This document shows, in pieces, positions 23,021-63,773 of a DNA stretch of 64,000 nt; positions within the stretch are counted from its first letter, which is position 1, and every line of letters begins with the position of its first letter. The stretch lies in contig JAUCBJ010006820.1 of assembly GCA_032718475.1 (NCBI GenBank), forward strand, positions 1 through 64,000, in the 5' to 3' direction. The position numbers were made by a program, and so were the translations under genes. The notes beneath the pieces were generated by a model. The model was not told the origin of the DNA. It saw only the letters and a program-made list of their open reading frames with translations, and did not search any database. Source of the stretch: Nemertoderma westbladi (lineage: Eukaryota; Animalia; Xenacoelomorpha).

Positions 23021-23028
23021 CAGGCATA

Positions 23029-43234: not shown

Positions 43235-43800
43235 AAATATTACGCTACGCGTACAGACCATTCAAACAAAATGCAGACCAAATACTGACAGACTACTATC
43301 AAGCCTAAACAAACTACGGTATATGTAGACTCCGAAATGGTTAAGTAGTATGCGTTCTAACCCAGTAGTACGACTTATTCTTTAGATGGGGGTTTACCTT
43401 ACAGCTTTTGCTGCCCCTACTTCCTAACCGTTCTTTATCGGACAGATGCTTTACACACACCGAAATTTCCTCAAACCCAACAGCAGCCAGACAACTATCC
43501 AGCCTACAAATTATCTAAATAAATTATACGCTACCTGTACAGACTACACAAACAAAGTACAGACTAAACGATGGCAGACTACTCTCAAGCCTAAATAAAC
43601 TACAGGACATGCAGACTCCGAAATGATTAGGTAGTATGCGTTCTAACCCAGTAGTACGACTTATTCTTTAGTTGGGGGTTTACCTTACAGCTTTTGCTGC
43701 CCCTACTTCCTAACCGTTCTTTATCGGACAGATGATCTACACACACTGCAATCCGTTCAGACTTAACAACAATCAGACAACAGTCAAGCCTACAAATTAT
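43235..43800. repeat. ~286-bp tandem duplication in the 5' leader of element A
   Basis: GTAGTATGCGTTCTAACCCAGTAGTACGACTTATTCTTTAG occurs at ~43345 and ~43631. Confidence 0.85.
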
Positions 43801-44068
43801 CTGTACAATCTGAGCGGGCTTACACGCCTTCTGCTCAATACTGGCCTACAAATAAATAAAACTGACAGAAATAGGCCTAAGTAAAATCCCAATAAAAACC
43901 AGGCGTCCCCGATTAATTATTAAGACCTACCGGCTTATAATTATCAAAATCGAATAATACTGCTGTACCTGTACTGCTATATGTACCGGTCCGGGTGGTT
44001 AGGTAGTCAGGCCTACTTGGTACCGGTTGCCGGTACTTCTGCTTTATTGCCTACTGCAATACAGAAGC

Positions 44069-44080
44069 TATATCCGTTAT
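44069..44080 (-). promoter_or_regulatory. Non-tRNA-type primer-binding position of element A (sense ATAACGGATATA)
   Basis: Abuts the 5' LTR end and has no TGG. It is the perfect complement of LTR-internal sense TATATCCGTTAT (63310-63299; 30231-30220). Confidence 0.7.
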
Positions 44081-44453
44081 TGTTCGCGCTTTCAGACCTT
44101 TGGCAGTTTAACCCGCCAAATTAGGATGTCTTCTAGATAATAAATCACGTTTAGCCTCTGACAAGTATTTTATTCACTACACTAGTCGAAACCAATCGGT
44201 GCGCGATCATTCACCCGCTGGATATACCCGGGAGATTGGGTTCGACGGCTTAATCGTATTGCTATGTAAGCCTAATGTATTATTCGACTGACAGTATTAT
44301 ATAATCTCTGACAATATTATTCACCTTCGGGGAATATTAACAGTTCCTTTAGGACATGGCGCTCTATCTATAAAAACAGAGTTATGACTTAAACTACTCA
44401 CAACGATATGGCTTAGTTACAATTCACATATATGGCGCATTCTTTAGGAAATG
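44081..44453 (-). repeat. 5' LTR of element A, internal (R/U5-side) part
   Basis: Matches 29480-29852 except one substitution seen; ends at the AAATG target of element B. Confidence 0.95.
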
Positions 44454-46661
44454 TGTTACGGTATATGGCGCTGTATCCACAGTATTAGTCCATTATGCTG
44501 TATCCACAGTATTAGTCCATTATGCAGTATGCAGTATTAGTCCATTATGCAGTATGCAGTATTAGTCCGTTATACTGTACGTAATATTAGTCCGTTGTGC
44601 AGTATAATTATTTAGATAAGGCGCAGTGTGGTGACATTTAGGTAAGGAAGTTAAAACGCCCATATATTTTGCATCCATTCATTTTGTATAGTATGTAGCC
44701 CTACCTACGTAATTTTGTATTAGGATATATGTAGATAGTTCCAGGGTAGCGAGTTTACTCGGACCCTGGATTTTGTGCTTGCTGATATTAGTTTGATAGG
44801 GCTAGCATATAGGGACGCTGTCCTGGCCATTCAGCAGCCAGAGACGTGATCCATTACCATATATGGTAATAATTTGAGGGCATAGGGCTACAATCCGGTC
44901 TCCTTATTGGATTAACTGCTTCCAGGTTGGTTTAATGCTAGCATAGACTGGAGAGCCAATGGGAGAGCGATTGAGTCACCTTATTGCATCACCCCATCCG
45001 GATCACCTATAAATTGGCGGTGTGCCGGTAGGGCCTTTGTTGTTCATATGTTCATGCTTTATCACATGACACACCCCTGTTACAATTTACTTGCTGAGCT
45101 GTCTCTAATTTTGTATTAGGATATCGTATTTTCTGCAATTTGCTAATTTGATTAATTTCTTGAAATGATTTGCTAGTTTGTGTTTGTGGTTGTTTGTGTT
45201 TCTCAATAATTCCTTCGATTACTGCTAATTACAATTGAACTATGATTTCTACTCTTTGATTAATGGTTCTATGTGATTCTTTTCTGCGCAATAATCCTAA
45301 GGGATTTCTGAGACTGTCAGACTTTGTGATTTGCATGCGCCGCTACGGTAGCTATTAGCATCATGGAGGGCTAAGGTGCCAGTGGGCGGTGGGCGCATCG
45401 GGGGGTTGAGCGACTAGGAGAGAGCGGAGGATTCAAAACGGGCAACGCTGGCCAGGGTCACCGTTGCGGGCGGGTATCTTGCACTGCGGCACGCAGACCG
45501 ATCGCCGGTACAGTATCTAGGGGGCTGATGATCCAGGTTTTGTCTCTATTTAGTATTAGGGGGGCAGGAATTGGGTTAGTTAGGAATCCTAGATGTACCC
45601 GGGAGAGGCCTGCGCGTATTACAACGTTGAGTATGGAGTACGAGTAGTGAATTGCACAATTGTAAACTGTGATTTCTAACGCTGATTGGTGTGTTATTGA
45701 AGTGTGCCTAAGATTACGAATGCTTAGATAGGCGCTCTTTTTCCTTTGATTGATTTCTATTTCTTAGTTACAATAATTAGTTATTGATTAGGTCAAAGTA
45801 ATACGGCAATTTAGGCTATTACTAGCGAAACCTGTTGCGTGATAGATTAGAATTACGTATTCTGGAATTCTTAGTAATTAGTACGCTGTTAAATATTTGT
45901 GACTGTAATTAATTAGTAAAAATTAAGAATTAGTACGCAGCATAGCGGAGAGTAGCTAAGGTAATAATTAGTGTACTGTAAACTATTCACGCTGAGCGGT
46001 TATTTGCATTAGCGGGCAATCAGCTAGAACGCACTATTCGGTACGCACGATACGCTAGTAATTTTGCTGCCCTAAAGCCAGCCGCGGGCAGTTTTAGACT
46101 CGGAGTGGTGTTATCCACGTAGAAACAGATACTGTACCATTTTGATATTTTAAATATTCTCGCATTCACACATTACGTTAGGGAACCTCCAGTATTCGCG
46201 ATTAGAAAGACGTAGGTAATAGCGTGCTTTAATAGTGATAAAATTAGGCGTAAGAATACTCTGAGTGCAAGGCCTCTCGCACTCGTCTTAAGTAAGCTTA
46301 GGGAGCCGACTCGGGTTTATTGTTTTGGTTATTCCCGCGTGGCTCATAGATTCGAACAGTTAGCTCTCTATCGAGCAATCGGTAGAGAAAGGAACAAGCG
46401 ATTTTGCAGGAGTTGTGTAAAATTAGTAAAATATATTAGTGGACGGCAGATTAGCGCCATCTAACGGTAAGTAGCGGTTTTGTATTTAGCAACCCTTACA
46501 ATTTAGTAATAGCACGCTCCTAATCCCCTTTACTTAACAGTAGAGCAGTTTTTGTGTCTTATTGGATAGGCGAGAGCTCATTAGGTTGGCAGAAGGATAT
46601 TAACGGGTATTGGTCTGTTCAACAGTTCTGCTGTTAGTATAGAGGTCGCGGTTGTTTATCA
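44454..46661 (+). repeat. 5' LTR of element B (2208 bp)
   Basis: Near-identical to 60723-62926 (about 6 substitutions plus one 16-vs-12 bp block, by eye). CCAAT at 44956 and TATAAA at 45008. Confidence 0.96.
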
Positions 46662-46672
46662 GTAATACGCGC
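46662..46672 (+). promoter_or_regulatory. Non-tRNA-type primer-binding position of element B (GTAATACGCGC)
   Basis: Abuts the LTR-terminal CA and has no TGG. It is the perfect complement of GCGCGTATTAC at 45612-45622 (61877-61887 in the 3' LTR). Confidence 0.7.
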
Positions 46673-47969
46673 TTTTGCTTTGCTGTACTGCGTACAGTAA
46701 GGCAGATAGAGTATTCTTAGGCTATTAGCTTAGATTATTGTTACTTTAGATTACTGATACTTCGTATCAGTAATACGCGGCTTTTGCTTTGCTGTACTGC
46801 GTACAGTAAGGCAGATAGAGTATTCTTAGGCTGATAGTAGTATCATAGTATTAGGCAATAAGTTAGAGCACGTGATCGTCTGCTGTAGGCTATAGGCTAG
46901 CGTACAGTAAGACATTGAGTTTATTCTATTAGGTTGTTAGTTTAGATTACTGTATTCACTGGCTGCGTACAATAGTACAGTAGTACATTAGGCTGATTGT
47001 TGTTACTGCGTACGGTAGAAGGGACATTTGTTTGCCGTACCACACACACAGTATCATTAGGCTGTTAGGTTGGTGTACTGTTTTACTTACTGTACTGCAT
47101 ACAGTGGATGTACGGTAGTGCGTTTTACTAATTGCGAATACAGCAGTTCCTTAGGCCTTAGGGCAAACTGTAATTAGTAAGTTTTTTGAAAATTATTAGC
47201 TAGGTTTGCGAGAATTCAGTTTCGGTCAAAATTATTTTGTAAAATTCTAGAGTTTTGTACCGGTATGTTAGGTAACCGCTTAGTTATTTTATACCATCTG
47301 GAGATACATGGCAAGACGGAACTTCTGAGTTTGGGGTTCGTGTGGGTCTGCGGGTTCGGTTTGCAATCAGCGAAGGGCCTGAATCTTTGGACGCGGACGT
47401 GGAATCTCACAGCAAACAAGGTTAGTTGTTCTGTTGGCACCAGTGTGTTTGTGGAAGCAGTAAAAAATTATCGGTTGTTTATCTGCGAAGCTGAACTCAA
47501 TTTATTAGTTAGGATATTTAGGTTTAGCCGGCCATGGTTTTTTGAATCGCTCAAGTTAGAGAGAGAGTTAGAGAGAGTCGCAACCCGAAGATGTAGCCAC
47601 GCGCTAGTGGATACATATAATATTTGAAATTAAAATTACGTTAATTAGAGCTATATATATATAAAATTAGAAATATTCGGGTGGCAAGTATATTTTGAAT
47701 ATTTTGTATTAGATTCAGAGTTATTTTGTGCTATACCGGTATTTAATACTATATAGTAGCTATATAATAATATTTTTGTTTAAATATTGTGCTAGTATTT
47801 GCTATAACTATATACCCCATTAAATTCACAATATTGCATTGCGAATTTATTTTGACATTTTGGACCAACTGATTATTTGACAAATAATTTGACCGTATTT
47901 CGGTTAAATTATAATCATATCTCGAACTTTGCGAGATATTTTTGCCGGAAGGCAAATATTATTTAGACT

Positions 47970-49571
47970 ATGAGTGTCTCAGACAAAGAGGCACTAGAGG
48001 ACAGCTACGAGACGGCGGCTGGACCGCCGACTGACGATAGCGTCAATATTACTGTTGACGACAATGCCGACTATGACGACGCAGCGAGCGACGCTGACGT
48101 AAGTGAACAGGAGGACGAGACAGTGACTAGTGAGGAAGAACAACTACCTCAGGTAATAGTATTAGGATCCCCTACCGCTACTGTAAGGAAGGATTGTACA
48201 GCAACCCGGGCAGAGGTGAGTGATAGGGAGGATAGTGTAGCAGAAGCGAGAGCCCGGAGCCCGGTTTCCAGACCTGTGGGTATGGTAAGTGCCGTGGTCC
48301 CAACGGCTGTAAGGAGTACCCGTAGTTCCCGAAATAATCCTTCAAGTCCACCGAGCGTAAGTCAGGTGAGTGATAGAGAGTTCGATATCGCGATAAAGAA
48401 GAAACTTCGCGCGCATGCCGGACATATAACTCGGACGGCGGACAAGGTAAGAAAAATGTTGGCCGACTCAGCCAACATCGGGAGGGTAGAGTTAGCAGAA
48501 ATTAGAAGAGGATATAACTCAGCGTTATTCAAGCAGACAGAGGAGCTTGCAGTCCTAGCGAAGAAGGCAGTAGAGTCTCAGTCGAGCGACGTGGCGACGA
48601 GGATTTACGACAGGGTTTTAGCAGCCTTGTTGGAGCACCGCGAGTTATCGGAGCGATTCCGACGAGTTAGGACAGAGAACTGGCTGCTATGGGCATCACA
48701 AGCGCAGGCGACTCAGGTGAGTGACGCAGAGTTAAGAGACTTAGTGGAGCGAGAAGAGACGCAGGATAAAGAGGAGCGCCGTTATCAGAGGGAAGGTACT
48801 AGCTGGCTGATGCAGAATGGAGTGGTGGTACCAGGCCAGGTGCTACCGACGACGGAGAACATTCAACAGAGGACGTTAACTTCACCCGACGATGCATCTA
48901 GAGACAGCGGCGATTCCCAGGTTAGTCACGCGCGAGGTAAGGTAATATGTGCTAGATCCCTTGTTTCTCACAACTCGGCGGAGGAGAGAAGACGCCGACT
49001 AGACGAACAGCAGGCGGAAGTTTTGCGTGCACAGGAAGCACGGAAGGAAGCCGAGCGGGAACGGGAGTGCACACGTAAGTTGGACGCAGAGTTACGAGAG
49101 TTGGAAGAGATAAGTAAGCGCGAGCGAGCGGAACGCGAGCAAAGGGAACGCGAACTCCAAGCCGAGCGCGAGCGCGAGGAACTCGAACGCGAACAGAGAG
49201 AACGCGAACTCCAACTTGAATGCGAGCGGGAAGCGAAGAAACGCGAACTCCAACTCGAACGCGAACAGGAAGCGAAGAAACGCGAACTCCAAGCCGAACG
49301 CGAGCGCAAGAAACTCGATCGTGAACAGAAGGAGCGCGAGCTTCAACTCGAACGCGGACGCAAGGAACGCGAACTCGAGATCGAGAAAAGAAGACGTGCA
49401 TTGTATGAAGAAAGGTCGCGAGTGGAAGAAGAGGGCGCAGCGAGACGAGCGAGGGAAGAAGAAGAACGTAAACTGGCGCAGTTGGAAAGTGCGAGATTAA
49501 GTTTAGAGAGCGAAGAATGGACTAGGAAGGCGAACGAAATCGCCGAGAAGGGGATGCGAATGATCGAATAA
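47970..49571 (+). CDS. N-terminal coiled-coil part of element B Gag, ending at an in-frame TAA
   Basis: Acidic N-terminus and E/R-rich 11-aa repeats. Same frame as the downstream ORF (offset 1626 nt), separated only by TAA at 49569-49571. Confidence 0.8.
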   Translation: MSVSDKEALEDSYETAAGPPTDDSVNITVDDNADYDDAASDADVSEQEDETVTSEEEQLPQVIVLGSPTATVRKDCTATRAEVSDREDSVAEARARSPVSRPVGMVSAVVPTAVRSTRSSRNNPSSPPSVSQVSDREFDIAIKKKLRAHAGHITRTADKVRKMLADSANIGRVELAEIRRGYNSALFKQTEELAVLAKKAVESQSSDVATRIYDRVLAALLEHRELSERFRRVRTENWLLWASQAQATQVSDAELRDLVEREETQDKEERRYQREGTSWLMQNGVVVPGQVLPTTENIQQRTLTSPDDASRDSGDSQVSHARGKVICARSLVSHNSAEERRRRLDEQQAEVLRAQEARKEAERERECTRKLDAELRELEEISKRERAEREQRERELQAEREREELEREQRERELQLECEREAKKRELQLEREQEAKKRELQAERERKKLDREQKERELQLERGRKERELEIEKRRRALYEERSRVEEEGAARRAREEEERKLAQLESARLSLESEEWTRKANEIAEKGMRMIE

Positions 49572-49595
49572 TGTGGGGCGAGTGTAGGGACTGAG

Positions 49596-52500
49596 TTGCG
49601 AGAACTGTTCGCACTGCAGAAGGCCGAACAGGAAGCGAGAACTCCGGCTATACGCGAGTCGACGACGACCAGAATTCCTATACCCGGTCCAGCTATTACG
49701 AGTACACGGATCGTTAAACCGCTCTCTACATATCGCACGCCAGTTGGTATTAGTGCTTCACCTATCGCCCAGGATCTACGTCATCGGAACACCGCACCAC
49801 TGTATACCGAACGTGACAACGGAGAATTTAGAGAAGAAACTCCGACGGGCCGAGTATTTGGCGAACCGAACCCGAGGGTTTGGAATACGCGGACGGAGCG
49901 CCGACCCAGTTCGACGGAGAACTTCCGGGTTAAACCGGAAGAGGGATCATATGAGAGACAGCGGATTACTCAGATAGAGCCGACTATACAACAGAACCCT
50001 AGCCAGGAATTTATTACGAGGGATGAGTTAAGTGCTAGTTTAGCGCAAGCTATATCGCCGCACATCCAACCTATAACGGACATGCTTAGCAACCTTCGGT
50101 TAAAGGAAGCAGCCCAGGTAAGAAGTAATTCTAATCCTAGCAGGCCTGAGTTAGATAAAGTCCAGCCTAGTCAACGAGTACGCATATCGGAGGAGACTAT
50201 ACCACATAGACCTCAGGTAAGGACGCCTGTCCCGAATATCCATAATCCCAATTTCGAAAATTCGGCAGAAAGATTTATTGAGGAAGCTTGGGTCAGGGCC
50301 TCGGCGCGCAAATCATCGCGAGCGCTAAGGACTGACACCGAGTCAAGCGATGAAGAGGAAGAAATGAGACGTCAAAAGTCCCGAAACTATAAGGAAAGAA
50401 GGACGGACGCGGAGCAGGTAAGTTGGAACCACCGGGAAAGGACCAGACTTAACAACCCTGCGGAACTAAACCATTTGTTAACCCGGAACGACGCAACCCT
50501 CAGGGACATAGGTAAGTTTGCTGCTAGGCAAGGACTGCCGACGCAACAACCCCAGAAGTTTATGGGCAACCACAAGCACTGGAGGACTTTTAAAACCTAT
50601 GTCGACGAGCAGCTAACCAACAGCACCTTTACTCCCAACGAGAAGTTCAACTATTTGCTTCAGATGCTCCATCGAGAACCTAGAGCCATTGCTGATAACT
50701 TCGTCGGCAATGAAAGAGCATTTGAGTTAGCGATGTTGGGCATCTGTTGGGACACCTGTTGGGCATGTCTTGCGCCAGGCCATGTACGGCGGCAGTGCCC
50801 GAACAGCAAGGACGGATGCATGGAATGCGGCAGACTACATCACAAGTTGCTACATGCGGATTTCCATACCCCAACGGACCGTTACTTACAACGAAATCCT
50901 CAAAGGAAGGGGAGCAAAGAACCCGTATCGATAAGGAGGAATACGTATACTGGCATCCAGGACGATGGTTACCAACCAGGTTCGTCGGACGAGGATGGCG
51001 TGTCGAGCGCAAGAGAAGTGACCTGCCAAGGTTTCACCGCGGATAGTTCATCGACCAGCGCGCGGACGTATTTATCATCGGCCACGTCGGAAATATTTAG
51101 CGTGATTCCGGTGAAACTCACTGGCGATAAGGGATCAAAGCGAATATATGTGATGTTGGACACTGCGTCCACATTATCTTACATCGACGAGGAAGTGGCG
51201 AGAGCTGTTTCTAGCTTCCAGGACGCCGAGGAGATCCAAATAGAGTTGAAGTCTATGCACGGAGTAGGAGACCTCAAGGGACACAGAATTTCGGTAGAAC
51301 TTGATTCCCTACTTCCGAGAGACCAGCATACTCGACAAGAACGGAAAGCTTTGCCATTGGACGGATTTAAGTGTCTAGCTATGAAGGGATTCGGCAGGCA
51401 GTTAGGTAAGGTGCCGCCGATGAGTCCCATAGCACAGGAGTATTTTGACAAGCTCAGGATACCCAGACACCAGGTAGGTTATAGGAATGTTTCTATGTTA
51501 ATTGGTGCAGAACAGCTGATCGCACACCAAATATGGGAAACGAGACCAGCTGAGCCGCATGTCAATGGACCACATGCCCATAGGACCATATTAGGTTGGT
51601 ATACACGAGTACCCATGTCTTATGAGTTTACAGGTGGCGACAAGCCAATGAACAGATACGACGAATTACAGCCTATAACTCAACCACCGTTAGTAGAACC
51701 ACCAGACATAGACGAGTTTAGGAGAACCTGTATTGACCACTATAGTGACTTTAGCGAGTCGGACGAGGAGTTGATTCCCGATAATGTTAGGTTGTCGGAA
51801 CCACTTCACAACGACCGGACAGATAGTGAACCCGAGGACTACTGTTATCAGACCCGTGGGTCTGGTTCAGCGGCCCACGCTACTTATCTGACTAACGTTT
51901 TGACTTATACAGACATAGTGGAGGGTCAAGCGGCTAAATATCGAGACCTAGACATTTTCCAATATAGTGAGGAGGAATTACAGAAGGAATTGATACGCCA
52001 GGACCTCGAGACAGGAGCCAGAACCGTAAAATGGCTGGATAGGGACGCAATGGAACCCGGTGGATATGACCTAGCCATGTCTACTGATGAGAAACGGTCG
52101 CTGGAGATGATGGAAGATACCATACGTCTACTACCGACTGGACATTTTGAAGTTGGAATGTTGTGGCGTCGACAACCACCTAAGTTGGAGAACAACTATA
52201 ACTTAGCCTTGAAAAGATTAAACGGAGTAAGGGCTCGGTTGTTGAAGAATCCGGACATTAGGGAGAAGTATTGCGCCCAGATCAACAACTATTTCGCCAA
52301 GGGATTTGCTGGGAAGGTAGAGGACCCTGACTTAGTGACAGACCAGACTTATTACCTTCCACACCACTATGTGACTCTCCCTGACAAGCCAGACAAAGTC
52401 CGAGTAGTCAACGACTGCGCAGCAGTCTATAGAGGTATGTCCCTGAATTCAGAGTTGATGGATGGTCCCAACCTGAATAACTATTTGATTGGAATACTGT

Positions 52501-55500
52501 TGCGTTTTAGACAGCGGCGATTCGCATTTACTTGTGACATCGAGGCGATGTTCCACCAGGTAAGAGCCTGTAAGTCAGACCAGGATAGCCTTCGATTTCT
52601 CTGGTATGAGAATGAAGACTTATCCGGCCCAGTGGTTACATACCAAATGTACGTTAGGATATTTGGCGCCCGCGATAGTCCGAATGGCACGCTGTTCGTT
52701 TTAAAGAAAACGGCAACAGCCCAGATTGGTAAGTATCCAGTAGAAGTAATCGAGTCCATCTTGAGAAACTTCTATATGGACGACGGATTGGTGTCCAAGG
52801 ACACGGCGGAACAAGCCATTGAAGTGGCTCACGGCCTGCAAGAGTGCTTGGCTACAGGGGGATTTCCTCTGACCAAGTTCACTACTAATTCGGAGGCCCT
52901 ATTAGAATCGTTCCCGGTAAAAGATCGCGGGAGCGGAGACATAGAATTGGGGGTAGAACCAATCCCCATGGCGCGAGTACTGGGACTCGCTTGGAATCCG
53001 AACTCAGATAAGTTCCAGGTAAGAGTTAGATTTGAGCCCAGTAGCCCAGACAAAGTTTTGACAAAGAGGATTTGCTTATCGACGTTAAGTAGACTATTTG
53101 ACCCGATGAACTTTATCAGTCCGGTTATATTACAGGCACGAGCGTGCATGAGGAAAATTTGGTTGTCCGACTTAGAGTGGGACGAACCAATATCTCCTAT
53201 ACATGCAAAGCAGTGGAGAGAGTGGGAAGCCGAGTTACATCTATTGAAAAACATAGATGTACCCCGTTCCTACTTTCCGAATCAGCTGGTATTCCCAGCT
53301 GATTTAGAGCTCCACCTATTTAGTGACGCAAGTGATACCGGCTTTGGTATGGTAGCCTACCTTCACCGAGAGGTAAGTCAGGACAAGTTTGAGACGGCTT
53401 TTGTGACTTCTAGATCAAAGACAATGCCGGTCAAATACATGACTGTCCCTCGTGCAGAGTTACAGGCGGCTGTAGTTTCGGTCGAGGTAAGTAAGCAAAT
53501 AACTGAGGAGTTGGACACGACATTGACCTTATTCTATTGGACGGACGCATCCTTGGTGTTAGTATACATTGCGGCCGACAATATTGCACTAAAGACATTT
53601 GTGGCCAATAGACGCGCTCAGATCGTTGATTTTTCAACGAAGGAACAATGGAGACATTGTCCGGGAGTGTTGAACCCGGCCGACATAACTTCGAGAGGTG
53701 CAATGCCGGCGGAATTCTGTCGGGAAGAGTCGCAGGAGTTTTGGTTGCATGGACCTGATTTTCTAACAAGGACACAGGAACATTGGCCAGAGCGACTAAA
53801 GATAGTGACCAATCCGATGCCTGAAGATGCAGAAGTAAAAGTGGAAAAAGTCTCTAAGTCGAAGTCTAAAGCCAAACTTAAGTCATTGGAGCGGCCTGAA
53901 GAGTCATCGGAGCGGCCTGAAGAGTCATTGGAGCGGCCTGAAGAGTCATTGGAGCGGCCCGGAGACCTGTCAGACCAACAGACTTACGTGACTACTAGGT
54001 CAGGAAGGGTAAGTTACGACGTAAAACCACCCTTACAGACTAGACGACAGTCACAGTTGGTAAGTGACGGACAGAAAATGACCGACATAATGGATCCTTT
54101 GGTTTCCAAACCTGTGGGTTTGGATTCGAAACTTCCATTGGTTAGCGGACAACCGTCGCTGGCATTAGAGTCATGCAGTGTTTATGACAAATTACTAAAT
54201 TCGTCTGCCTCTTGGCTGACAATTTGTAAAAGAACTGCGTGGTTAAGCCGATACATTTTGTACCTTCGTTTAAAACATTCGAAACATTTGAGAGAACCAT
54301 TGAGCACAAATAGTGAGCGAATTCGGAAATTGAAACAACCTCTGACAGAGGATGAGATTGATCAAGCGGAATTAAAGCATTTGAGACATTATCAAATGTG
54401 TGCCTTCCCTAAAGAATTCCATCTATTATCGGCTCAACGACCAGTTCTCTATAAACCCCTTAGAAAATGGAGTCCATTAATCCATAAGGGTTTAATTTGT
54501 CATAGATCGAGAATCCAGACTGTCGACATAAACTCACAGTTTCGGTTCCCAGTGATAATCCCTAGTTACCCAATAGAATTGCAAAGAGCGATTCTATGGG
54601 ATATACACAAGAGGTTGCATCATGCGGGAAAGTTACACTGTCTGTCGGCAGCGAGACAGCGATTCATTCTATTGCAGCCAAGCAGGGCAGTCGGCACCAT
54701 GTACGACGCCTGTCTGGTTTGCAAGAGGGTGAACGCCAGAGTATTGGAACAGGAGATGGCTGAACTCCCGGAAGCGAGAGTGCAGGCATATGACCCACCC
54801 TTTACGAACACAGGGGTGGATTGTTTTGGTCCGATTGAGGCAAAGAGTGGACGGCTGACCCACAAGCGATGGGGTCTGCTACTGACATGTATGGCTAGTA
54901 GAGCCATACACATCGAGCGTGTGGCAGACATGTCGACCAAATCTCTGCTCCTGGCCTTGAAGAGATTTATGGCCAGGAGAGGACTAGTAAAGGCGTTCTA
55001 CTCTGATAAGGGTACAAACTTTGTCGGAGGGAATAGCGAGTTGAACGCGGCTCATAAAGCAGCACAGAATAAGGAAATTTCTGCAGCACTTTTGCCGCAA
55101 CGAGTAGAATGGAGATTCAATACTCCAGAAAGTCCTTGGAGAGGAGGAAGTTGGGAGCGTTTGGTTCGCTCTGTGAAGCAGGCCATTGCCAAAACATTGC
55201 CTGTGAACAAACAACTTACCGATGACGAACTGGTTACAGCTTTCATTGAAATCGAGCATACCCTAAACTCGAGGCCGATAGCTATGTTGCCAGACGGTGT
55301 TGCATTGACGCCGAATCATTTGCTAATGCAGAGTCCAGCATTTCTTGTGCCGGCATCAGAACCCGTTAGTGCCGACCTATATAGTCGTAAGAGCTGGAAG
55401 GTGACACAATTTGTGGCGTACACATTCTGGGAATATTGGCGGGAATACTATCTTCCCACCATATCCACCAGAACAAAGTGGTACAAAACGGTTCGGAGTC

Positions 55501-55769
55501 TCCAAAGGGGAGATTACGTGTTGATAACCGAGCCGATTATCAAGAGAAAGTATTGGGAGACAGGAGTTATCTTGCACACACACCCAGACGTGCAAAACAT
55601 AGTGCGCACAGTCACTGTGAAAATTAGGTGCAAGTGTCCGCACCCAAAAAAGTGTAAAACTAATGGTTTACACACCTTGGACCGACCGGTCCAAGATATT
55701 GTGTTATTAGAGGAGACACGTATCGAGACGGGAGATTATAATTTGTCTCCTGCCTCAAAACAGAGTTAG
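49596..55769 (+). CDS. Gag-PR-RT-RH-IN polyprotein of element B (continuation after the stop; gag internally shortened)
   Basis: KFMGNHKHW; CWACLAPGHVRRQC and CMECGRLHHKLLH knuckles; MLDTAS; DIEAMFHQV and YMDD; HLFSDAS and VPRAEL; HKRLHH..CLVC, GVDCFGP, SDKGTNF and WERLVRSVK. Confidence 0.95.
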   Translation: MRELFALQKAEQEARTPAIRESTTTRIPIPGPAITSTRIVKPLSTYRTPVGISASPIAQDLRHRNTAPLYTERDNGEFREETPTGRVFGEPNPRVWNTRTERRPSSTENFRVKPEEGSYERQRITQIEPTIQQNPSQEFITRDELSASLAQAISPHIQPITDMLSNLRLKEAAQVRSNSNPSRPELDKVQPSQRVRISEETIPHRPQVRTPVPNIHNPNFENSAERFIEEAWVRASARKSSRALRTDTESSDEEEEMRRQKSRNYKERRTDAEQVSWNHRERTRLNNPAELNHLLTRNDATLRDIGKFAARQGLPTQQPQKFMGNHKHWRTFKTYVDEQLTNSTFTPNEKFNYLLQMLHREPRAIADNFVGNERAFELAMLGICWDTCWACLAPGHVRRQCPNSKDGCMECGRLHHKLLHADFHTPTDRYLQRNPQRKGSKEPVSIRRNTYTGIQDDGYQPGSSDEDGVSSAREVTCQGFTADSSSTSARTYLSSATSEIFSVIPVKLTGDKGSKRIYVMLDTASTLSYIDEEVARAVSSFQDAEEIQIELKSMHGVGDLKGHRISVELDSLLPRDQHTRQERKALPLDGFKCLAMKGFGRQLGKVPPMSPIAQEYFDKLRIPRHQVGYRNVSMLIGAEQLIAHQIWETRPAEPHVNGPHAHRTILGWYTRVPMSYEFTGGDKPMNRYDELQPITQPPLVEPPDIDEFRRTCIDHYSDFSESDEELIPDNVRLSEPLHNDRTDSEPEDYCYQTRGSGSAAHATYLTNVLTYTDIVEGQAAKYRDLDIFQYSEEELQKELIRQDLETGARTVKWLDRDAMEPGGYDLAMSTDEKRSLEMMEDTIRLLPTGHFEVGMLWRRQPPKLENNYNLALKRLNGVRARLLKNPDIREKYCAQINNYFAKGFAGKVEDPDLVTDQTYYLPHHYVTLPDKPDKVRVVNDCAAVYRGMSLNSELMDGPNLNNYLIGILLRFRQRRFAFTCDIEAMFHQVRACKSDQDSLRFLWYENEDLSGPVVTYQMYVRIFGARDSPNGTLFVLKKTATAQIGKYPVEVIESILRNFYMDDGLVSKDTAEQAIEVAHGLQECLATGGFPLTKFTTNSEALLESFPVKDRGSGDIELGVEPIPMARVLGLAWNPNSDKFQVRVRFEPSSPDKVLTKRICLSTLSRLFDPMNFISPVILQARACMRKIWLSDLEWDEPISPIHAKQWREWEAELHLLKNIDVPRSYFPNQLVFPADLELHLFSDASDTGFGMVAYLHREVSQDKFETAFVTSRSKTMPVKYMTVPRAELQAAVVSVEVSKQITEELDTTLTLFYWTDASLVLVYIAADNIALKTFVANRRAQIVDFSTKEQWRHCPGVLNPADITSRGAMPAEFCREESQEFWLHGPDFLTRTQEHWPERLKIVTNPMPEDAEVKVEKVSKSKSKAKLKSLERPEESSERPEESLERPEESLERPGDLSDQQTYVTTRSGRVSYDVKPPLQTRRQSQLVSDGQKMTDIMDPLVSKPVGLDSKLPLVSGQPSLALESCSVYDKLLNSSASWLTICKRTAWLSRYILYLRLKHSKHLREPLSTNSERIRKLKQPLTEDEIDQAELKHLRHYQMCAFPKEFHLLSAQRPVLYKPLRKWSPLIHKGLICHRSRIQTVDINSQFRFPVIIPSYPIELQRAILWDIHKRLHHAGKLHCLSAARQRFILLQPSRAVGTMYDACLVCKRVNARVLEQEMAELPEARVQAYDPPFTNTGVDCFGPIEAKSGRLTHKRWGLLLTCMASRAIHIERVADMSTKSLLLALKRFMARRGLVKAFYSDKGTNFVGGNSELNAAHKAAQNKEISAALLPQRVEWRFNTPESPWRGGSWERLVRSVKQAIAKTLPVNKQLTDDELVTAFIEIEHTLNSRPIAMLPDGVALTPNHLLMQSPAFLVPASEPVSADLYSRKSWKVTQFVAYTFWEYWREYYLPTISTRTKWYKTVRSLQRGDYVLITEPIIKRKYWETGVILHTHPDVQNIVRTVTVKIRCKCPHPKKCKTNGLHTLDRPVQDIVLLEETRIETGDYNLSPASKQS

Positions 55770-56525
55770 TGTTGGACGCAACTCACTTCGTATGCATTCC
55801 TCGTATGCAAATACAAGGAAATGCATAGGAGCGGGGTTGTGGTGATTTGCGTTGAGTTTTGTCTGGTGGGTATCAAAACAAAATTTTATTTTCAAAATTT
55901 TGGAAAAATTAAAAAATTTTAAAATTAGAAGTGAACCCAAGACAATTCCAGACGCTGTGTATAGACGCGTTTTAGAATTCGTCTATAGAAAACAGTAATT
56001 TGAAAAGTCGTGAAGCCTGGAAAATAGCATTTAGAAACCATGGTGACGGCTATATTACGTAGGAGTGTAAATTGAGTTTAGCAACTTCCACAGATTGGTG
56101 CCAATAGTGCAACTAAGGTGCTAAAGGTTAGTAGCACCAGAGGCGTGCACGGACCCCACTCAGTAGTTTGCAGGATGTGTGATGTTCGATTATCAAACCT
56201 GTGGGTTTGGTATAGTCGAGTATTGTGGCTATGGTCCTTTCTAACTACTGTAGTTTAGTACGAGTAATGGGAGTAGTTTGGGCATCAAAAAGTGAGTTGG
56301 TCACGGCCAGTTTATCTCCGAAGTTTTTGCGCTATGCATGGGAATAGGTTAGAGGATAGTTAGTTAGGAAGAGACGGGATCTAGAGAGTCGAACCTGAAC
56401 TGCTGGAAGGCGGGGGGGTTCGGGAGGTCTGTCTTTCGGCGACATCTAACTGATTTACCCACAGTGTAGTTGGTTACGTAACGGCACTTATTGGGATATA
56501 TATATATGTATATACGCGTAACATA

Positions 56526-59500
56526 ATGGAGAGGGATATTAGAGCGCAACCGCGCAGAGGATTTACTGCCAGAGAGGAGGCGGAGCTACCATTCGCGCGA
56601 CCAGGATGTAAAGACTCTAACGTTTACTACCATGGGCGGTCCGTGATGGAGCTGAACGGGAAGTATAAACCAAGTTATGATAAAGAATTACGGAGAGAAA
56701 GAATGAGAGCGTTGGGGGACCGGATGGAAGTTTTGCGGAGAGAGTATCGCACGCGGTATCCCTACGACTTTGCTTTGGACGTGTGCGACATTAGCGCAGA
56801 TCCGGACGAGGAAATCGCACGACTATACCATATGAATATGTATTTACGACACGAGGAGCCTCTACCTGCAGTCCGAGACCAGTTCGACGGAATGCACCTG
56901 TATCGGAGGACTCGAGGCGAGGATCAGGAGACGCCGAAAGTCTTCAGCGTATACAAGCTCTTCTACAAGTGTGGTGAATGCATGAATAAACAGGACGTGG
57001 CGATTCCCGACCGACTAGACGAGCAACATCCGGAACCGATATTAACGCGATGTCCAGCTCACCAATTCCTTAGATACAACGAGGGAGGTTACCCGATGAG
57101 CAACCCGATGATCAGTATCGACTTCAGCGGAAAGCGACCTCCGAGACCCATTACGCCGACCGTTACGACATTAGATCCGTATACGGAGATTAAACCCTGT
57201 TCGACACCCAGTTTGATAGAGACGGCAGCGGCCATTTCGCTGTACCGAGCCTATAAGGATCTAGAGGCGCGGCGCGAAGCGGCGCGGGACTCGGGTACCA
57301 AACCCGCGGGTTTGGAGCTCTCGAGTCCCTGGACTGCGTTTACTTCACCTCACCGAGTGAGAAGCCTCACGCCTGAGCATCAGGACGACATAGACGCGTT
57401 GCGGCAGGAGGAGCGAGCGGCGAAGGCAAAAGAGTTATTTGAGAACAGGATAGCGGAGTATAATAAGACCGCGGATAGACATCAAGAGGAGACGAGGAGA
57501 GTGACCGGATTTGTTCCACAGGTCGTATCTCAACCCGGACCGGTGTATTATTCCGACGGCACCGAACCTGCGATATTAGTAGATCATCCGGAGTCGCGAG
57601 AAGCGATACGATTCTTGCCGATGGTAAGAATGGCGGACCATTGGAACGTTGACTGTCTACGGGAAGTTTTATGCGCGAAGTTCTTGCGTGATGTCCCAAT
57701 GCAGATCACAGATTATGACACGTTGGATAAGATTGGAGCTCCGGGGAAGGAGAGTAAACTATTCGGATGGTTGGATAAGTACATCAAGGTATGGGTCGCG
57801 GTGGCTACATTCCCAGACGACGAGGAGGTAGACCAGACGTGGCTGAGGAGGAAGGGTTCTTATACCCGATATGATGACCACAAGGCGATCGAGCGCATGT
57901 GGACCCCATCAGATGAGATTCAGCGTCAGTGGAGGAAGACGGAGGAATCGCTGCAAGATTGGAGGGTGATGTTCTACGACAATGAAGGAGGGTCCCATCA
58001 AGAATGCTTGACCAGCAAGTGTATTCAAGTTCGTGCGGCCGATAGTGTGACTCATGTGTTTATGCGTGTGAGGGCGGATCGAGAGAGACCGGAGCCCATC
58101 ATAACGACACAATATCGGAAGGGGAAGGATCCTAGGGAACAGATTTTGGAGGTATGCAGGCGAGGAGGTATGCACGGAGCGGAGCGTATCGACGCCAGGA
58201 TGTTACCAAAGAAAGTTAGAGAGGCTATTCTCAACCAAGATTACGTCAAGGTGGGATCGGGAGTCCAGAGCGATTTGGAGAGCGACTTCAACGCCATGAC
58301 TGATCTGGAAGATAGATTGCCGAGACCGTTTGTCGACACCAAGCTATTGTTGCTATGGGCACAGGATATTGGAATTTATAGGGAGTATCCCAACTCTGCC
58401 AAGACTGGTATGGGCTTTATAGCACACTTGTTGTATAATTGGGACTTTAAGTTGAAGACGCAGAAGAAGTACGAGGAGGCGTATGGTGAATACAACACGC
58501 CACCAGGAGCGGAGTTCAAATCCCACTTCAAGCGGCAAGCGTTAGTGTATTGGAACATTTGCGCGCCACCCCGTGCGTCGCTACAATATTATTTGGTGCT
58601 TGAGTCGAACACGGTGACTTGTTTATTAGCGGATATCGTTGCGCGAGTTTTGAAGCGTCATCCATTGGTATTCGGAGGAGATCAATACGTTCGCTCGAAA
58701 GGGGGAATCCAATCCGACGTGATGAAGCGTTTCTTAACCCCGTTCTTCAACCAATCGTTAGAGAATACGTCGATGGTGAGGAGAGGATTAGCGATATTCG
58801 AAGGAGTATATCGACAGAACATCGGAGATTTGGGAGACCGACCGTCGATGGAATATCCGACGCCAGAAGCTTTGGAGAAGTGGTTCGGGAATCAAACCCG
58901 CGGGTTTGGTACTCCCTTCCACTCGGAGGCTGATAGACCTGTTAAGGAGGGCTGGCCGGAAACGTTAGTAGAGGTGTTCGGAGTAGATCTTCCGGTGGAG
59001 AAGACATATCCGAAACGAACGCGGGAGGAAATATTGGAGATAGAGGACAAGGGCGAGGATGTTTACTTTGTTCCGGATCGACAACCGTTGACCGGAGAGG
59101 ACGACATCGTATTAGACATTGGGAAGGAAGGAAGTGCGAAACCGATTGGAGACCTCATATACGAGAGGGCCTGGTTTCCACAAGCGCGTAGGTGCAAATT
59201 GTGCGGCAGCACAAGGCACAATCTAAAGTCGTGCGACGCGGTAATAGAGGCGGCGCATAAGGTCTGTCGTTGGTGTAATGAGACCGACCATTCGTTTCAC
59301 ACGTGCACCGTCTTCATTTCTCAATGTGGATATTGTGGAGTAAAAGGACATCGTAGCGCGAGATGTCAGCTGCGAGATGATTCCTTTCAAAACCATAGCG
59401 CTAACCTACTTCGGGAGATGTTAGACAAGTGGGAGAGTGTGGCGGATTACCATATTCAAGCGCAGATGCGTTGGTTACCATTTAAAGCGGGATATGGGTT

Positions 59501-60233
59501 TTGGGCGGTAGACCCATCGCATGTTGCGTACGAGCCATATCTACAATCGCTACCACAATATCAGGAGCTCATCCTAACTGCTCAAGACCTTCCACAGAAC
59601 ACTGGAGTTATCGTAGTCCGAGAATACTTCAGACAATTGAACATGGACAATAAGTACACATGGAACTTCGTTGCTATTTGCGATCGCATCACGAAGGGTG
59701 TATTTACGGAGACTAGAAAAGTGGTACGCGCGCGAGGTGATTGGAGGATGGCGGCTATACAATACCGCAACGAATTCTTGTTGACTCATGTGCCGGTGGG
59801 TTCATTGACCGCCGAGAGGATACAGGAACAAAGGATCGCAGCGACCACAGCGACGACCGCTGGAGCTCAAGGCTCGCGGAAAGAACCAGGAGGAGGGGTC
59901 CAAGACAAGCGTCAAGTCAAGGACGACCACTACCACTCTATTATAGAAGCGCAAAGGTTGCAGCGCAAGGCGCAGGGGGCGTCTGAGAAAGCGCGTGTGC
60001 AACTGCAGAAGGAAGAGTTGGCGGAAGCGACCACGGGAGCGCGACAATTGGGACGAGGCCGAGGGAGAAGTTCGAGCCGAGAATCTGTCGGGGCTCAGGG
60101 AACGTCGTCGCCGGTTCCGGGGAGTGACGCCTCACGGACGCCGTCAACGGAGTCGACTAGAGGTAGATTAGTGTATCTGGGAAGGGGGCGAAAGAGAGGA
60201 GCGAGCCCAAAGAACCCAGGAGCGGGTCGATAA
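56526..60233 (+). CDS. Extra ORF (1235 aa): DEDDy/RNase D-like 3'-5' exonuclease domain plus three CCHC zinc knuckles
   Basis: ExoI FYDNEG (57978), CIQV, LPKKVREAILNQDYVKVGSGVQSDL (ExoII), FVDT, GMGFIAHLL, W...LQYYLVLE (ExoIII-like). Knuckles CKLCGSTRHNLKSC, CRWCNETDHSFHTC and CGYCGVKGHRSARC at 59193-59366. No signal peptide or TM segment seen. Confidence 0.78.
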   Translation: MERDIRAQPRRGFTAREEAELPFARPGCKDSNVYYHGRSVMELNGKYKPSYDKELRRERMRALGDRMEVLRREYRTRYPYDFALDVCDISADPDEEIARLYHMNMYLRHEEPLPAVRDQFDGMHLYRRTRGEDQETPKVFSVYKLFYKCGECMNKQDVAIPDRLDEQHPEPILTRCPAHQFLRYNEGGYPMSNPMISIDFSGKRPPRPITPTVTTLDPYTEIKPCSTPSLIETAAAISLYRAYKDLEARREAARDSGTKPAGLELSSPWTAFTSPHRVRSLTPEHQDDIDALRQEERAAKAKELFENRIAEYNKTADRHQEETRRVTGFVPQVVSQPGPVYYSDGTEPAILVDHPESREAIRFLPMVRMADHWNVDCLREVLCAKFLRDVPMQITDYDTLDKIGAPGKESKLFGWLDKYIKVWVAVATFPDDEEVDQTWLRRKGSYTRYDDHKAIERMWTPSDEIQRQWRKTEESLQDWRVMFYDNEGGSHQECLTSKCIQVRAADSVTHVFMRVRADRERPEPIITTQYRKGKDPREQILEVCRRGGMHGAERIDARMLPKKVREAILNQDYVKVGSGVQSDLESDFNAMTDLEDRLPRPFVDTKLLLLWAQDIGIYREYPNSAKTGMGFIAHLLYNWDFKLKTQKKYEEAYGEYNTPPGAEFKSHFKRQALVYWNICAPPRASLQYYLVLESNTVTCLLADIVARVLKRHPLVFGGDQYVRSKGGIQSDVMKRFLTPFFNQSLENTSMVRRGLAIFEGVYRQNIGDLGDRPSMEYPTPEALEKWFGNQTRGFGTPFHSEADRPVKEGWPETLVEVFGVDLPVEKTYPKRTREEILEIEDKGEDVYFVPDRQPLTGEDDIVLDIGKEGSAKPIGDLIYERAWFPQARRCKLCGSTRHNLKSCDAVIEAAHKVCRWCNETDHSFHTCTVFISQCGYCGVKGHRSARCQLRDDSFQNHSANLLREMLDKWESVADYHIQAQMRWLPFKAGYGFWAVDPSHVAYEPYLQSLPQYQELILTAQDLPQNTGVIVVREYFRQLNMDNKYTWNFVAICDRITKGVFTETRKVVRARGDWRMAAIQYRNEFLLTHVPVGSLTAERIQEQRIAATTATTAGAQGSRKEPGGGVQDKRQVKDDHYHSIIEAQRLQRKAQGASEKARVQLQKEELAEATTGARQLGRGRGRSSSRESVGAQGTSSPVPGSDASRTPSTESTRGRLVYLGRGRKRGASPKNPGAGR

Positions 60234-60722
60234 TACATTATGGCACAGGGCGACAGACTCTAGATATATACATCATCGTCGCTCTGATGTATATTGTAGC
60301 ATTTGAAAATTTTCGACTAGACTCGTATACACTAGTTGAGTTATTTGAATTTATATTATGAAAGAGGCGAAGGAAGTGATTGGGGAGACAAACCTGCGGG
60401 TTTGTCTTACTCCTTTCACTTACCCTAGCAAAATTTTTATATTTGATTTTGTATGTAGTAATCATTATGTAGTAAGAATGAACGAGAGACAATATTTTGT
60501 AAATTTAATTTGTATGTAATAATCGTTAAACAATGAGAGAGATAATATTTTGTAAACTTAATTTGTATGTAATTCATTATGCAATATCTATGGCAATATT
60601 TGTAAATAGTAGAATTATTATGTTATTTAGATTGGTTGGAAGAAATTTATTTTGTTTTGTATACATCACCTTATACTCTTCTACAATTGGAGGGAAACAT
60701 TATATGATTTCCCTTGGAGCGG

Positions 60723-62926
60723 TGTTACGGTATATGGCGCTGTATCCACAGTATTAGTCCATTATGCTGTATCCACAGTATTAGTCCATTATGCAGTATG
60801 CAGTATTAGTCCATTATGCAGTATGCAGTATTAGTCCGTTATACTGTACGTAATATTAGTCCGTTGTGCAGTATAATTATTTAGATAAGGTGCAGTGTGG
60901 TGACATTTAGGTAAGGAAGTTAAAACGCCCATATATTTTGCATCCATTCATTTTGTATAGTATGTAGCCCTACCTACGTAATTTTGTATTAGGATATATG
61001 TAGATAGTTCCAGGGTAGCGAGTTTACTCGGACCCTGGATTTTGTGCTTGCTGATATTAGTTTGATAGGGCTAGCATATAGGGACGCTGTCCTGGCCATT
61101 CAGCAGCCAGAGACGTGATCCATTACCATATATGGTAATAATTTGAGGGCATAGGGCTACAATCCGGTCTCCTTATTGGATTAACTGCTTCCAGGTTGGT
61201 TTAATGCTAGCATAGACTGGAGAGCCAATGGGAGAGCGATTGAGTCACCTTATTGCATCACCCCATCCGGATCACCTATAAATTGGCGGTGTGCCGGTAG
61301 GGCCTTTGTTGTTCATATGTTCATGCTTTATCACATGACACACCCCTGTTACAATTTACTTGCTGAGCTGTCTCTAATTTTGTATTAGGATATCGTATTT
61401 TCTGCAATTTGCTAATTTGATTAATTTCTTGAAATGATTTGCTAGTGCGATTACTTGCTTGTGTTTCTCAATAATTCCTTCGATTACTGCTAATTACAAT
61501 TGAACTATGATTTCTACTCTTTGATTAATGGTTCTATGTGATTCTTTTCTGCGCAATAATCCTAAGGGATTTCTGAGACTGTCAGACTTTGTGATTTGCA
61601 TGCGCCGCTACGATAGCTATTAGCATCATGGAGGGCTAAGGTGCCAGTGGGCGGTGGGCGCATCGGGGGGTTGAGCGACTAGGAGAGAGCGGAGGATTCA
61701 AAGCGGGCAACGCTGGCCAGGGTCACCGTTGCGGGCGGGTATCTTGCACTGCGGCACGCAGACCGATCGCCGGTACAGTATCTAGGGGGCTGATGATCCA
61801 GGTTTTGTCTCTATTTAGTATTAGGGGGGCAGGAATTGGGTTAGTTAGGAATCCTAGATGTACCCGGGAGAGGCCTGCGCGTATTACAACGTTGAGTGTG
61901 GAGTACGAGTAGTGAATTGCACAATTGTAAACTGTGATTTCTAACGCTGATTGGTGTGTTATTGAAGTGTGCCTAAGATTACGAATGCTTAGATAGGCGC
62001 TCTTTCTCCTTTGATTGATTTCTATTTCTTAGTTACAATAATTAGTTATTGATTAGGTCAAAGTAATACGGCAATTTAGGCTATTACTAGCGAAACCTGT
62101 TGCGTGATAGATTAGAATTACGTATTCTGGAATTCTTAGTAATTAGTACGCTGTTAAATATTTGTGACTGTAATTAATTAGTAAAAATTAAGAATTAGTA
62201 CGCAGCATAGCGGAGAGTAGCTAAGGTAATAATTAGTGTACTGTAAACTATTCACGCTGAGCGGTTATTTGCATTAGCGGGCAATCAGCTAGAACGCACT
62301 ATTCGGTACGCACGATACGCTAGTAATTTTGCTGGCCTAAAGCCAGCCGCGGGCAGTTTTAGACTCGGAGTGGTGTTATCCACGTAGAAACAGATACTGT
62401 ACCATTTTGATATTTTAAATATTCTCGCATTCACACATTACGTTAGGGAACCTCCAGTATTCGCGATTAGAAAGACGTAGGTAATAGCGTGCTTTAATAG
62501 TGATAAAATTAGGCGTAAGAATACTCTGAGTGCAAGGCCTCTCGCACTCGTCTTAAGTAAGCTTAGGGAGCCGACTCGGGTTTATTGTTTTGGTTATTCC
62601 CGCGTGGCTCATAGATTCGAACAGTTAGCTCTCTATCGAGCAATCGGTAGAGAAAGGAACAAGCGATTTTGCAGGAGTTGTGTAAAATTAGTAAAATATA
62701 TTAGTGGACGGCAGATTAGCGCCATCTAACGGTAAGTAGCGGTTTTGTATTTAGCAACCCTTACAATTTAGTAATAGCACGCTCCTAATCCCCTTTACTT
62801 AACAGTAGAGCAGTTTTTGTGTCTTATTGGATAGGCGAGAGCTCATTAGGTTGGCAGAAGGATATTAACGGGTATTGGTCTGTTCAACAGTTCTGCTGTT
62901 AGTATAGAGGTCGCGGTTGTTTATCA
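60723..62926 (+). repeat. 3' LTR of element B (2204 bp)
   Basis: Direct repeat of 44454-46661, immediately preceded by GGAGCGG (PPT-like, 60716-60722). Confidence 0.96.
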
Positions 62927-62931
62927 AAATG

Positions 62932-63773
62932 CTTCGTTATCAGTCTCACTCATACACAATGCTGCACAATACTGCACACTGATCTGCCGATCTTCACTGA
63001 TTTTAGTCACATATAAAGGGAACACAGACCGACTCATGTAGGGTCTATCAGATAACATTAGATTCACTTCAAACCACTTTAACATAAGTCACAATCGTTA
63101 TATGTAACCTTTCTCTCTTACCTTCGGTATATCAAGAATATTGGGTTTCGGGGTAATTTCTCGTTATTCCAAATATAATAATTCATCAACAAATATAATG
63201 AATAACCGACAGCAAAGCAGTAATGTTAAGTAAGATAAATGCAATGAGATAACCAGTGAGATATTAAGTCAGTGAGTTGAGATATCAAGTTTGGTTTGAT
63301 AACGGATATATGTCCTTATAATTAAGCCTACTAGTGTTAGGCTAAAAGCAGAAAAGCACTAAATATTCTAAAGCCGTTCTTTCCTGGCTCAGGACAGAAT
63401 GTAAACACTGCCCATAAAGCATGGAGTGATTTCTAGGAAATTTCTGTAAAAGAGCCATAAAAATGCTCTGATTGGCTGACTGAACTGAGAGATGCCGTAG
63501 AACAAAGAAAATCGACACGTATGAATGTCAGCTGTTAACCGTCGTCATAGTAACTACTGTTCAAGAGTAGCTATCACCTTTTGCGTCACGGAATTGCCAT
63601 AGAATCATCAACTATGCCTTCCACAGTACACATACGGAAGAAATAGCTCTTAGATCCTCTAAAAACACCGATACAGCAATAATACGGCCTCTTACGCCTA
63701 TTAAACCAACTACAGAGTATTTTACGGGAAAAATAAGAGAAAATAACCGGGCAATTCAGCAAAAGCTTTTACA
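62932..63773 (-). repeat. 5' LTR of element A, outer (U3-side) part
   Basis: Matches 29853-30694 and ends GCTTTTACA. 373 + 842 bp = 1215 bp. Confidence 0.95.

Follow-up and report, generated by a model that had tools for sequence, protein, structure and literature searches.

A third reading frame with a predicted DEDDy-type exonuclease and zinc knuckles, kept under purifying selection in a BEL/Pao retrotransposon family of Nemertoderma westbladi

The analysed window, 64,000 nucleotides of the xenacoelomorph Nemertoderma westbladi (assembly GCA_032718475.1, contig JAUCBJ010006820.1, positions 1 to 64,000 of the forward strand), contains a BEL/Pao long terminal repeat (LTR) retrotransposon, here called element B, which carries a third open reading frame (ORF3) past its pol gene. 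Element B is 18,473 bp long (44454..62926, + strand, as are all of its features given below) and has inserted into one LTR of another BEL element, A. Its 5' LTR (44454..46661, 2208 bp) and 3' LTR (60723..62926, 2204 bp) have TG...CA ends and are 11 substitutions and 4 gap positions apart (Kimura two-parameter distance 0.005, or 0.5%). A target-site duplication of 5 bp flanks the element (left copy 44449..44453, right copy 62927..62931); the empty site is seen in the other LTR of element A, with the 5-mer in one copy. Element B is young and comes from a recently active family.

The gag N-terminal reading frame (47967..49571) is terminated by an in-frame stop at 49569-49571, while the remaining gag and pol follow at 49572..55769. 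Pao-type domains were recognised in pol by Pfam in BEL order and within the paired LTRs, namely PF05380 (E 1.3e-38), Integrase_H2C2 and DUF5641. In comparison with element A, gag of element B is about 245 amino acids (aa) shorter in the capsid region, the distance from the start of DUF1759 to the matching knuckle being 69 aa vs 314 aa. The gag damage reported by the first-pass annotation, a model's reading of the letters, is thus seen both in the stop and in the shortening. Within pol, a 21-bp tandem repeat (53885-53975) codes a short repeated peptide between ribonuclease H (RNase H) and integrase. A short purine-rich tract (60716..60722) adjoins the 3' LTR, and its 7-mer is identical to that of element A; repeats of this 7-mer were considered as marks of an ancestral insertion point and dropped, as it is found 10 times on the + strand.

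ORF3 (56526..60233) is an intact frame of 1235 aa on the pol strand, with its ATG at 56526, its stop ending at 60233 and no internal stop. It starts 757 bp past the pol stop and ends 490 bp ahead of the 3' LTR. The uninterrupted 1235-codon frame between integrase and the 3' LTR was therefore found as described before; its "env position" holds as a location, after pol and before the 3' LTR, where some related elements have an envelope gene, and the likeness to env is positional only. A threshold of 1.6 marks a transmembrane segment on the hydropathy scale. The best 19-aa hydropathy window in ORF3 is 1.34, so no transmembrane-like segment is present, in accordance with the earlier claim that env-like hydrophobic segments are lacking, and the hydropathy scan revealed neither a signal peptide nor a transmembrane anchor of the kind found in env/fusion glycoproteins.

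Several parts can be distinguished along ORF3. A CxxC...CxxH cluster at aa 149-179 (C149-x2-C152...C176-x2-H179; 56970..57062) is a possible zinc site. It is followed by the predicted DEDDy-type 3'-5' exonuclease domain at aa ~461-720 (57906..58685), to which the structural model adds an extra first strand near aa 420. In this domain lie the probable ExoI motif D485-x-E487 (57978..57986), weakly preferred over D518, ExoII with D583 in KVGSGVQSD (58272..58274), an FVD motif at D604, and ExoIII, Y689-x3-E693 (58590..58604), in which Glu replaces Asp. Three CX2CX4HX4C zinc knuckles, starting at aa 890, 914 and 934, occupy aa 890-947 (59193..59366), and behind them there is a conserved helical post-knuckle domain without a fold match (aa ~951-1040; 59376..59645). 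The frame ends in a basic low-complexity tail (aa 1096-1235; 59811..60230). The first-pass annotation had listed all four exonuclease motifs, the knuckles and the upstream cluster, and each of them was located; of the basic, RG-rich tail it described, the basic character stands (19% K+R), while richness in RG is modest, with 5 RG in the whole tail.

Searches with the single sequence were not informative regarding the exonuclease. There was no PF01612 match for ORF3 in Pfam, so the Pfam check proposed for this domain came out negative, and among eight aligned homologue domains just one matched, at E 0.041. NCBIfam returned nothing useful, and single-sequence PDB searches with ORF3 gave weak knuckle or chance matches only. 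The family profile, on the other hand, matches EXD2 at E 3.6e-5 (E 2.2e-4 for the exonuclease domain alone), with ExoI, ExoII and ExoIII columns in register and the column of D583 equal to the ExoII Asp of EXD2. In the ESM Atlas, 24 of 30 matches belong to the PF01612 set, with a best score of 0.91, a level which shuffled proteins reach 4-10 times per 100. The AlphaFold model of the exonuclease is weak (mean predicted local distance difference test score 50.8). Used as a query in Foldseek it gave eight matches at E<=0.001, all of them EXD2 chains (best E 1.9e-4), and in VIA-align the EXO domain of Nibbler came first (Z 13.4, root-mean-square deviation 3.5, 197 aligned residues). The 50 VIA-align matches listed are, by title or by the known class of the protein, DEDD 3'-5' exonuclease domains; the trypanosome RNase D, TbRND (PDB 7c42), has Z 11.0 (200 residues). 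In BFVD nothing reached E<=0.001, the highest-ranked entries being 3'-5' exonucleases or polymerase I proteins. A DnaQ-like/DEDDy fold, whose absence had been set beforehand as a refutation, was consequently seen in both profile and structure searches (EXD2, Nibbler EXO), and the modelled exonuclease region of ORF3 very probably has this fold. For the model of the knuckles and post-knuckle domain, there was no Foldseek match at E<=0.001, the best Z in a wide VIA search was 5.2, on the low-confidence end of the model, and ESM Atlas scores stayed below 0.9; the missing fold match does not establish a new fold.

The likely catalytic set is D485/E487/D583/Y689/E693 (DEDE). ExoI falls on D485/E487 in alignment A1 and in two of three modes of the homologue-only profile test, and the homologue-only block score is 9.4 for D485 vs 4.5 for D518, with profile scores near zero. 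D518/E520 was rejected as the alternative ExoI because of its lower block score, and the D485/E487 register is regarded as probable. The AlphaFold model is not independent evidence on this point, because it was built on alignment A1. D583 is invariant in alignment A5. At ExoIII, Glu is present in ORF3 and in two of eight homologues, Asp in five, and the motif is absent in one. Since YxxxE is acidic yet non-canonical, ORF3 is filed as DEDDy-type and not as canonical DEDDy.

The homologues were obtained with HMMER, aa 340-1095 of ORF3 (without the first 340 aa) being searched against 1.84 billion representative sequences. Eight remote homologues were found at E<=0.001, one of them at <=1e-10, with 17-22% identity over the alignment, and all are unnamed or "hypothetical" in databases. 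The knuckle cluster and the conserved post-knuckle domain are present in all eight, and a recognisable exonuclease core in seven, P0001 being degenerate there. A profile made of the homologues only scores ORF3 at 74 bits, whereas none of 300 shuffles exceeded 3.1 bits; this test is not fully independent, because the homologues were found using ORF3. Word-index homologue searches were empty, and relatives of ORF3 were not found in viral contigs, prokaryote genomes or phage records (the last with one homologue as the query). The earlier proposal of a captured RNA-processing enzyme is supported by the predicted fold and by the upkeep of the frame in sibling copies, with the qualification that capture from the host does not follow, the nearest relatives being a distinct exonuclease and knuckle family and not EXD1, EXD2 or Mut-7.

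Genomic context was seen for two of the eight homologues: of 140 pattern matches in metagenomes, 2 were confirmed as homologue loci. The first (L001, 3.7 kb, encoding P0001; features at 79-2025 and 3384-3685) contains the knuckle and post-knuckle unit twice, with a degenerate exonuclease, and the start of an acidic ORF follows towards the end of this contig. In the second (L002, 2.5 kb, encoding P0004), the exonuclease is divided by a 90-bp GT-AG intron (505-594), ExoI being encoded in the exon before it, and the database protein P0004 is without the first exon of this gene. Because of this intron, the exonuclease-knuckle family also exists as a spliced eukaryotic gene, host or mobile. No gag or pol similarity beyond a knuckle was detected in either locus, the contigs being too short to reveal a carrier.

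To assess selection, sibling copies were compared in public DNA runs from four studies that contain the ORF3 stretch or part of it; the window itself may derive from one of these runs. Contigs aligned on 56300-60400 numbered 5264 in run X2 and 2554 in run X3, and those less than 90% alike numbered 670 and 466, respectively, a contig tally (not a copy number) which indicates a diverse multi-copy family. Across ORF3, 30 of 34 differences were synonymous, as counted among the 40 rows listed out of 344 difference rows. Within the exonuclease domain, differences at a share of at least 8% were synonymous in 32 of 35 cases, vs 21-34% expected (p <= 3e-12; three informative runs, two samples). The corresponding omega is about 0.04 (0.03-0.05), for sibling sequences down to ~82% DNA identity, as estimated by simple counting of common variants against the window copy on contigs too short to be tied to full elements. 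Differences at the same share include no indel rows, and none of them alters D485, E487, D583, Y689 or E693; with so few amino-acid changes overall, the catalytic sites are no more conspicuous than the rest. Decay is also seen in some copies of ORF3, as low-depth deletions and a frameshift. Judged from these sequence comparisons, the ORF3 exonuclease is under strong purifying selection among sibling copies, and the expectation that the frame is kept in them was thereby confirmed.

In BEL/Pao elements, the primer site is described as 18 nt for host tRNA-Arg or tRNA-Gly (profile of the International Committee on Taxonomy of Viruses, ICTV, PMC8742986). The TGG start of such a transfer RNA (tRNA) primer site is absent after the 5' LTR of both elements in the window. 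In element B, the primer-binding position (46662..46672) is instead an exact 11-nt complement of its own LTR at offset 0 after the 5' LTR, a match reached in 0.5% of 20,000 Markov shuffles and at 8 of 13,990 internal positions. The putative self-primer lies at 45612..45622 in the 5' LTR (LTR position 1159-1169), with a copy at 61877..61887 in the 3' LTR. This self-complement was first noticed in element B, and element A was tested afterwards: there the complement is 12 nt long, again at offset 0 (44069-44080 and 63299-63310, - strand), a match found at 1 of 13,329 positions. The pairing is present in the predicted RNA fold of element A (12/12) and not in that of element B (0/11; p about 0.02 for B), and neither element has a TATA box 30 nt upstream of its self-primer sites. 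Both elements appear to carry a Tf1-like self-priming signature instead of tRNA sites, which the ICTV profile does not mention for the family; priming by an internal tRNA fragment is a possible alternative. Since element A has its signature without ORF3, the exonuclease is not required in cis for self-priming.

Two further observations concern the same region of element B. The LTR end, primer site and leader start are duplicated ~108 bp downstream (46657-46723 and 46765-46832), with 10 of 11 primer-site bases kept. The 2.2-kb LTR (44454-46661) contains one TATAAA (45008), and both AATAAA and ATTAAA are absent from its sense strand.

Element A is a BEL/Pao element of ~16 kb on the minus strand (29480-44453 and 62932-63773), with long gag-pol frames and 1.2-kb LTRs that differ at 8 positions, element B being inserted in one of them. 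It shows no similarity to ORF3, and the 3-kb stretch ahead of its 3' LTR has no coding-strand ORF longer than ~100 aa. Elsewhere in the window, a 284-aa frame at 22202-23056 is presumably similar to the C terminus of ORF2 in non-LTR retrotransposons. Long tandem-repeat arrays extend over 160-1600, 3300-8050, 11100-13800 and 22900-28650 (units of ~10/46, 20, 35/60 and 45 bp), and a pair of 215-bp inverted repeats, 91% alike and 4.4 kb apart (16815-17029 and 21468-21682), are possibly DNA transposon ends or two copies of a dispersed repeat. No tRNA or Rfam families were found in the region.

We tentatively favour the explanation that ORF3 serves its BEL/Pao family as an accessory gene, intact and maintained by selection, with a predicted DEDDy-type 3'-5' exonuclease that may trim or destroy host small-RNA guides directed against the element, a reading that we consider possible and short of probable. 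The ORF3 product would be made from its own, probably spliced, message, as suggested by the start of the frame 757 bp past the pol stop. The knuckles would grip single-stranded RNA and feed its 3' end into the two-metal site, as in the trypanosome RNase D; there, RNA is bound upstream of its 3' end by the CCHC fingers, which increase cleavage at a two-metal DEDD site (PMC7797062). By this analogy, we lean towards an active RNase. The target would be an unprotected small RNA or its precursor, so that the benefit would be independent of the LTR replication cycle. Such a target is favoured because DEDDy ORFs are common to unrelated retroelement classes, as in rotifers, where they are reported from both LTR and Penelope-like elements (PMC5408684), because element A lacks one, and because relatives occur outside a visible LTR context.

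A number of points weigh against the small-RNA explanation. Both the nuclease activity of ORF3 and its substrate are predictions made from sequence. Mature PIWI-interacting RNAs (piRNAs) are 2'-O-methylated and resistant to many 3' exonucleases. A review argues that an element passed on vertically should suffer from anti-silencing of broad reach, and that the known cases are narrow (PMC6719617). Half of the six alignments (A4, A5 and the local profile mode) shift the register by ~30 residues, leaving ExoI without an acidic pair, and the weak structural model was supplied with an alignment already in the D485 register. The ExoIII of ORF3 has Glu and not Asp, and P0001 lost ExoII and ExoIII and reads DxK, so some family members are pseudo-enzymes. 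NrnC, diDNase and an apicoplast polymerase exonuclease domain are within 1 Z of Nibbler EXO in VIA-align, and with a lead this small the fold match does not name the substrate. In addition, the self-complementary primer site offers an alternative target for the exonuclease.

Maturation of a primer or 3' end would make use of precisely that target, and we regard it as a close rival, though rather unlikely in itself. The RNA would fold onto the 11-nt site and the exonuclease would chew the unpaired 3' end back to the duplex, leaving a paired 3'-OH for reverse transcriptase; this unpaired end could result from imprecise cutting by RNase H (5' copy) or be the transcript's own (3' LTR). DEDDy RNases stall at duplexes, which favours this scheme. 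It is also consistent with the exact complement that begins at the first base past the LTR in place of a tRNA-type site, with the lack of AATAAA and ATTAAA in the LTR, and with the similar suggestion of 3'-end processing by Rodriguez et al. (PMC5408684). However, a signature of this kind (12 nt) is also present in element A, which lacks ORF3, and the pairing is missing from the predicted fold of the very element that encodes the enzyme. RNase H has a role in Tf1 self-priming. No gene of the ORF3 kind accompanies self-priming in Tf1 as described (PMC4600332). Moreover, ORF3 lies outside Gag-Pol, so its packaging is not assured.

An equally close rival, with the same rather low probability, is an adaptor, in which a weak or dead exonuclease fold, like that of Egalitarian or EXD1, would localise or protect element RNA, for example in germ-line transport. 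The fold matches do include Egalitarian-RNA complexes (one with the I-factor signal) and Exd1, the ExoIII is non-standard, the ExoI register is uncertain and one homologue is degenerate; inactive DEDD derivatives occur in piRNA pathways according to the rotifer report (PMC5408684). Nevertheless, acidic residues are kept at ExoI, ExoII and ExoIII in 7/8 homologues each, at ~20% identity, which fits metal binding. A wider scenario seems to us somewhat less likely again: a giant BEL/Pao lineage would have swapped tRNA priming for priming by its own RNA, and the family would have added an RNase D-like enzyme which trims an RNA 3' end to the self-primer duplex ("trim-to-prime") or destroys small-RNA guides.

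An improbable role is proofreading or trimming of complementary DNA ends, supplied in trans to reverse transcription of a very long genome in the manner of a polymerase 3'-5' exonuclease. The length of element B, 18.5 kb vs 4.2-10 kb in the ICTV profile, would suit it, polymerase exonuclease domains are ~1 Z or less from the top match, and 40-kb Terminons are described as also having DEDDy ORFs; but element A reaches ~16 kb without an exonuclease, the knuckle array points to RNA, and ORF3 is not fused to pol. Least probable by far is a passenger, a recently captured host mRNA of no benefit to the element: although one homologue is an intron-containing gene, so that host-gene members may exist, omega of ~0.04 among siblings to ~82% DNA identity largely refutes it, and close host-type relatives were not found in the homologue searches.

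With regard to known systems, element B resembles Belpaoviridae in having PF05380, integrase and DUF5641 in pol, TG...CA LTRs, a 5-bp target duplication and a third ORF past pol. It differs in its size of 18.5 kb with 2.2-kb LTRs, beyond the ICTV range of 4.2-10 kb and 0.2-1.2 kb (PMC8742986), which is descriptive and no strict criterion, in a third ORF with a predicted enzyme fold instead of an env-like protein, and in the tRNA-type primer site, which was not found. Elements of this size would escape the main BEL/Pao survey, which retained elements of 2-15 kb (PMC3118150). The 11-12 nt right after the 5' LTR that are complementary to the LTR interior are like Tf1/sushi-type self-priming (PMC4600332, PMC6317226), which these sources report for Ty3/gypsy and some Ty1/copia lineages, the carriers here being BEL/Pao. 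A self-priming BEL case was not found in a limited literature search on self-priming. Textbook accounts give BEL/Pao tRNA priming, and the self-complementary sites of the two elements here are at odds with it.

Other literature searches found no exonuclease in BEL/Pao and no exonuclease-knuckle ORF3, most subscription journals, Repbase and supplements being outside them, so that an earlier annotation is possible. The precedent in bdelloid rotifers named in the first-pass annotation is real: DEDDy ORF3s with a DEED motif are reported in Juno and Vesta LTR elements and in Athena/Terminon elements (PMC5408684). As in Juno and Vesta, the DEDDy-type exonuclease of element B is a separate ORF3 past pol in an env-less LTR element and has an altered acidic motif. 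Unlike them, the carrier is BEL/Pao and the motif is DEDE, not DEED, and ORF3 has 1235 aa, three knuckles and an extra conserved domain, which the descriptions used for this comparison do not give for rotifer ORF3s. That report presented no evidence of selection or activity for DEDDy ORFs and described mostly neutral intragenomic variation in the env and GDSL ORF3s sequenced; here, strong purifying selection acts on an ORF3 of a different superfamily, in a family with many copies and recent activity. Should it prove to be an active small-RNA nuclease, it would add to the few instances in animals of counter-silencing encoded by a transposon.

Transposon-encoded DEDDy exonucleases are also found in some Dada DNA transposases, where the domain sits within a DDE transposase and is proposed to process DNA ends (PMC3706591). 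Among host enzymes, EXD2, Nibbler (Mut-7), the WRN exonuclease, Egalitarian and EXD1 share the order of ExoI-III with ORF3, EXD2 being the best profile match and Nibbler EXO the best structural one, while structural identity is 7-14% and their other domains were not seen in ORF3. TbRND is the enzyme most similar in layout, with a DEDD exonuclease followed by tandem CCHC fingers, a pairing called very unusual in its report (PMC7797062). It is, however, a host enzyme of mitochondria, 390 aa long, and its four fingers lie ~30 aa past the exonuclease, whereas ORF3 has three knuckles ~170 aa past it and then another domain, and by this comparison the likeness is probably convergent. Purifying selection, together with a layout that matches a biochemically solved enzyme, makes the substrate and mechanism of ORF3 directly testable.

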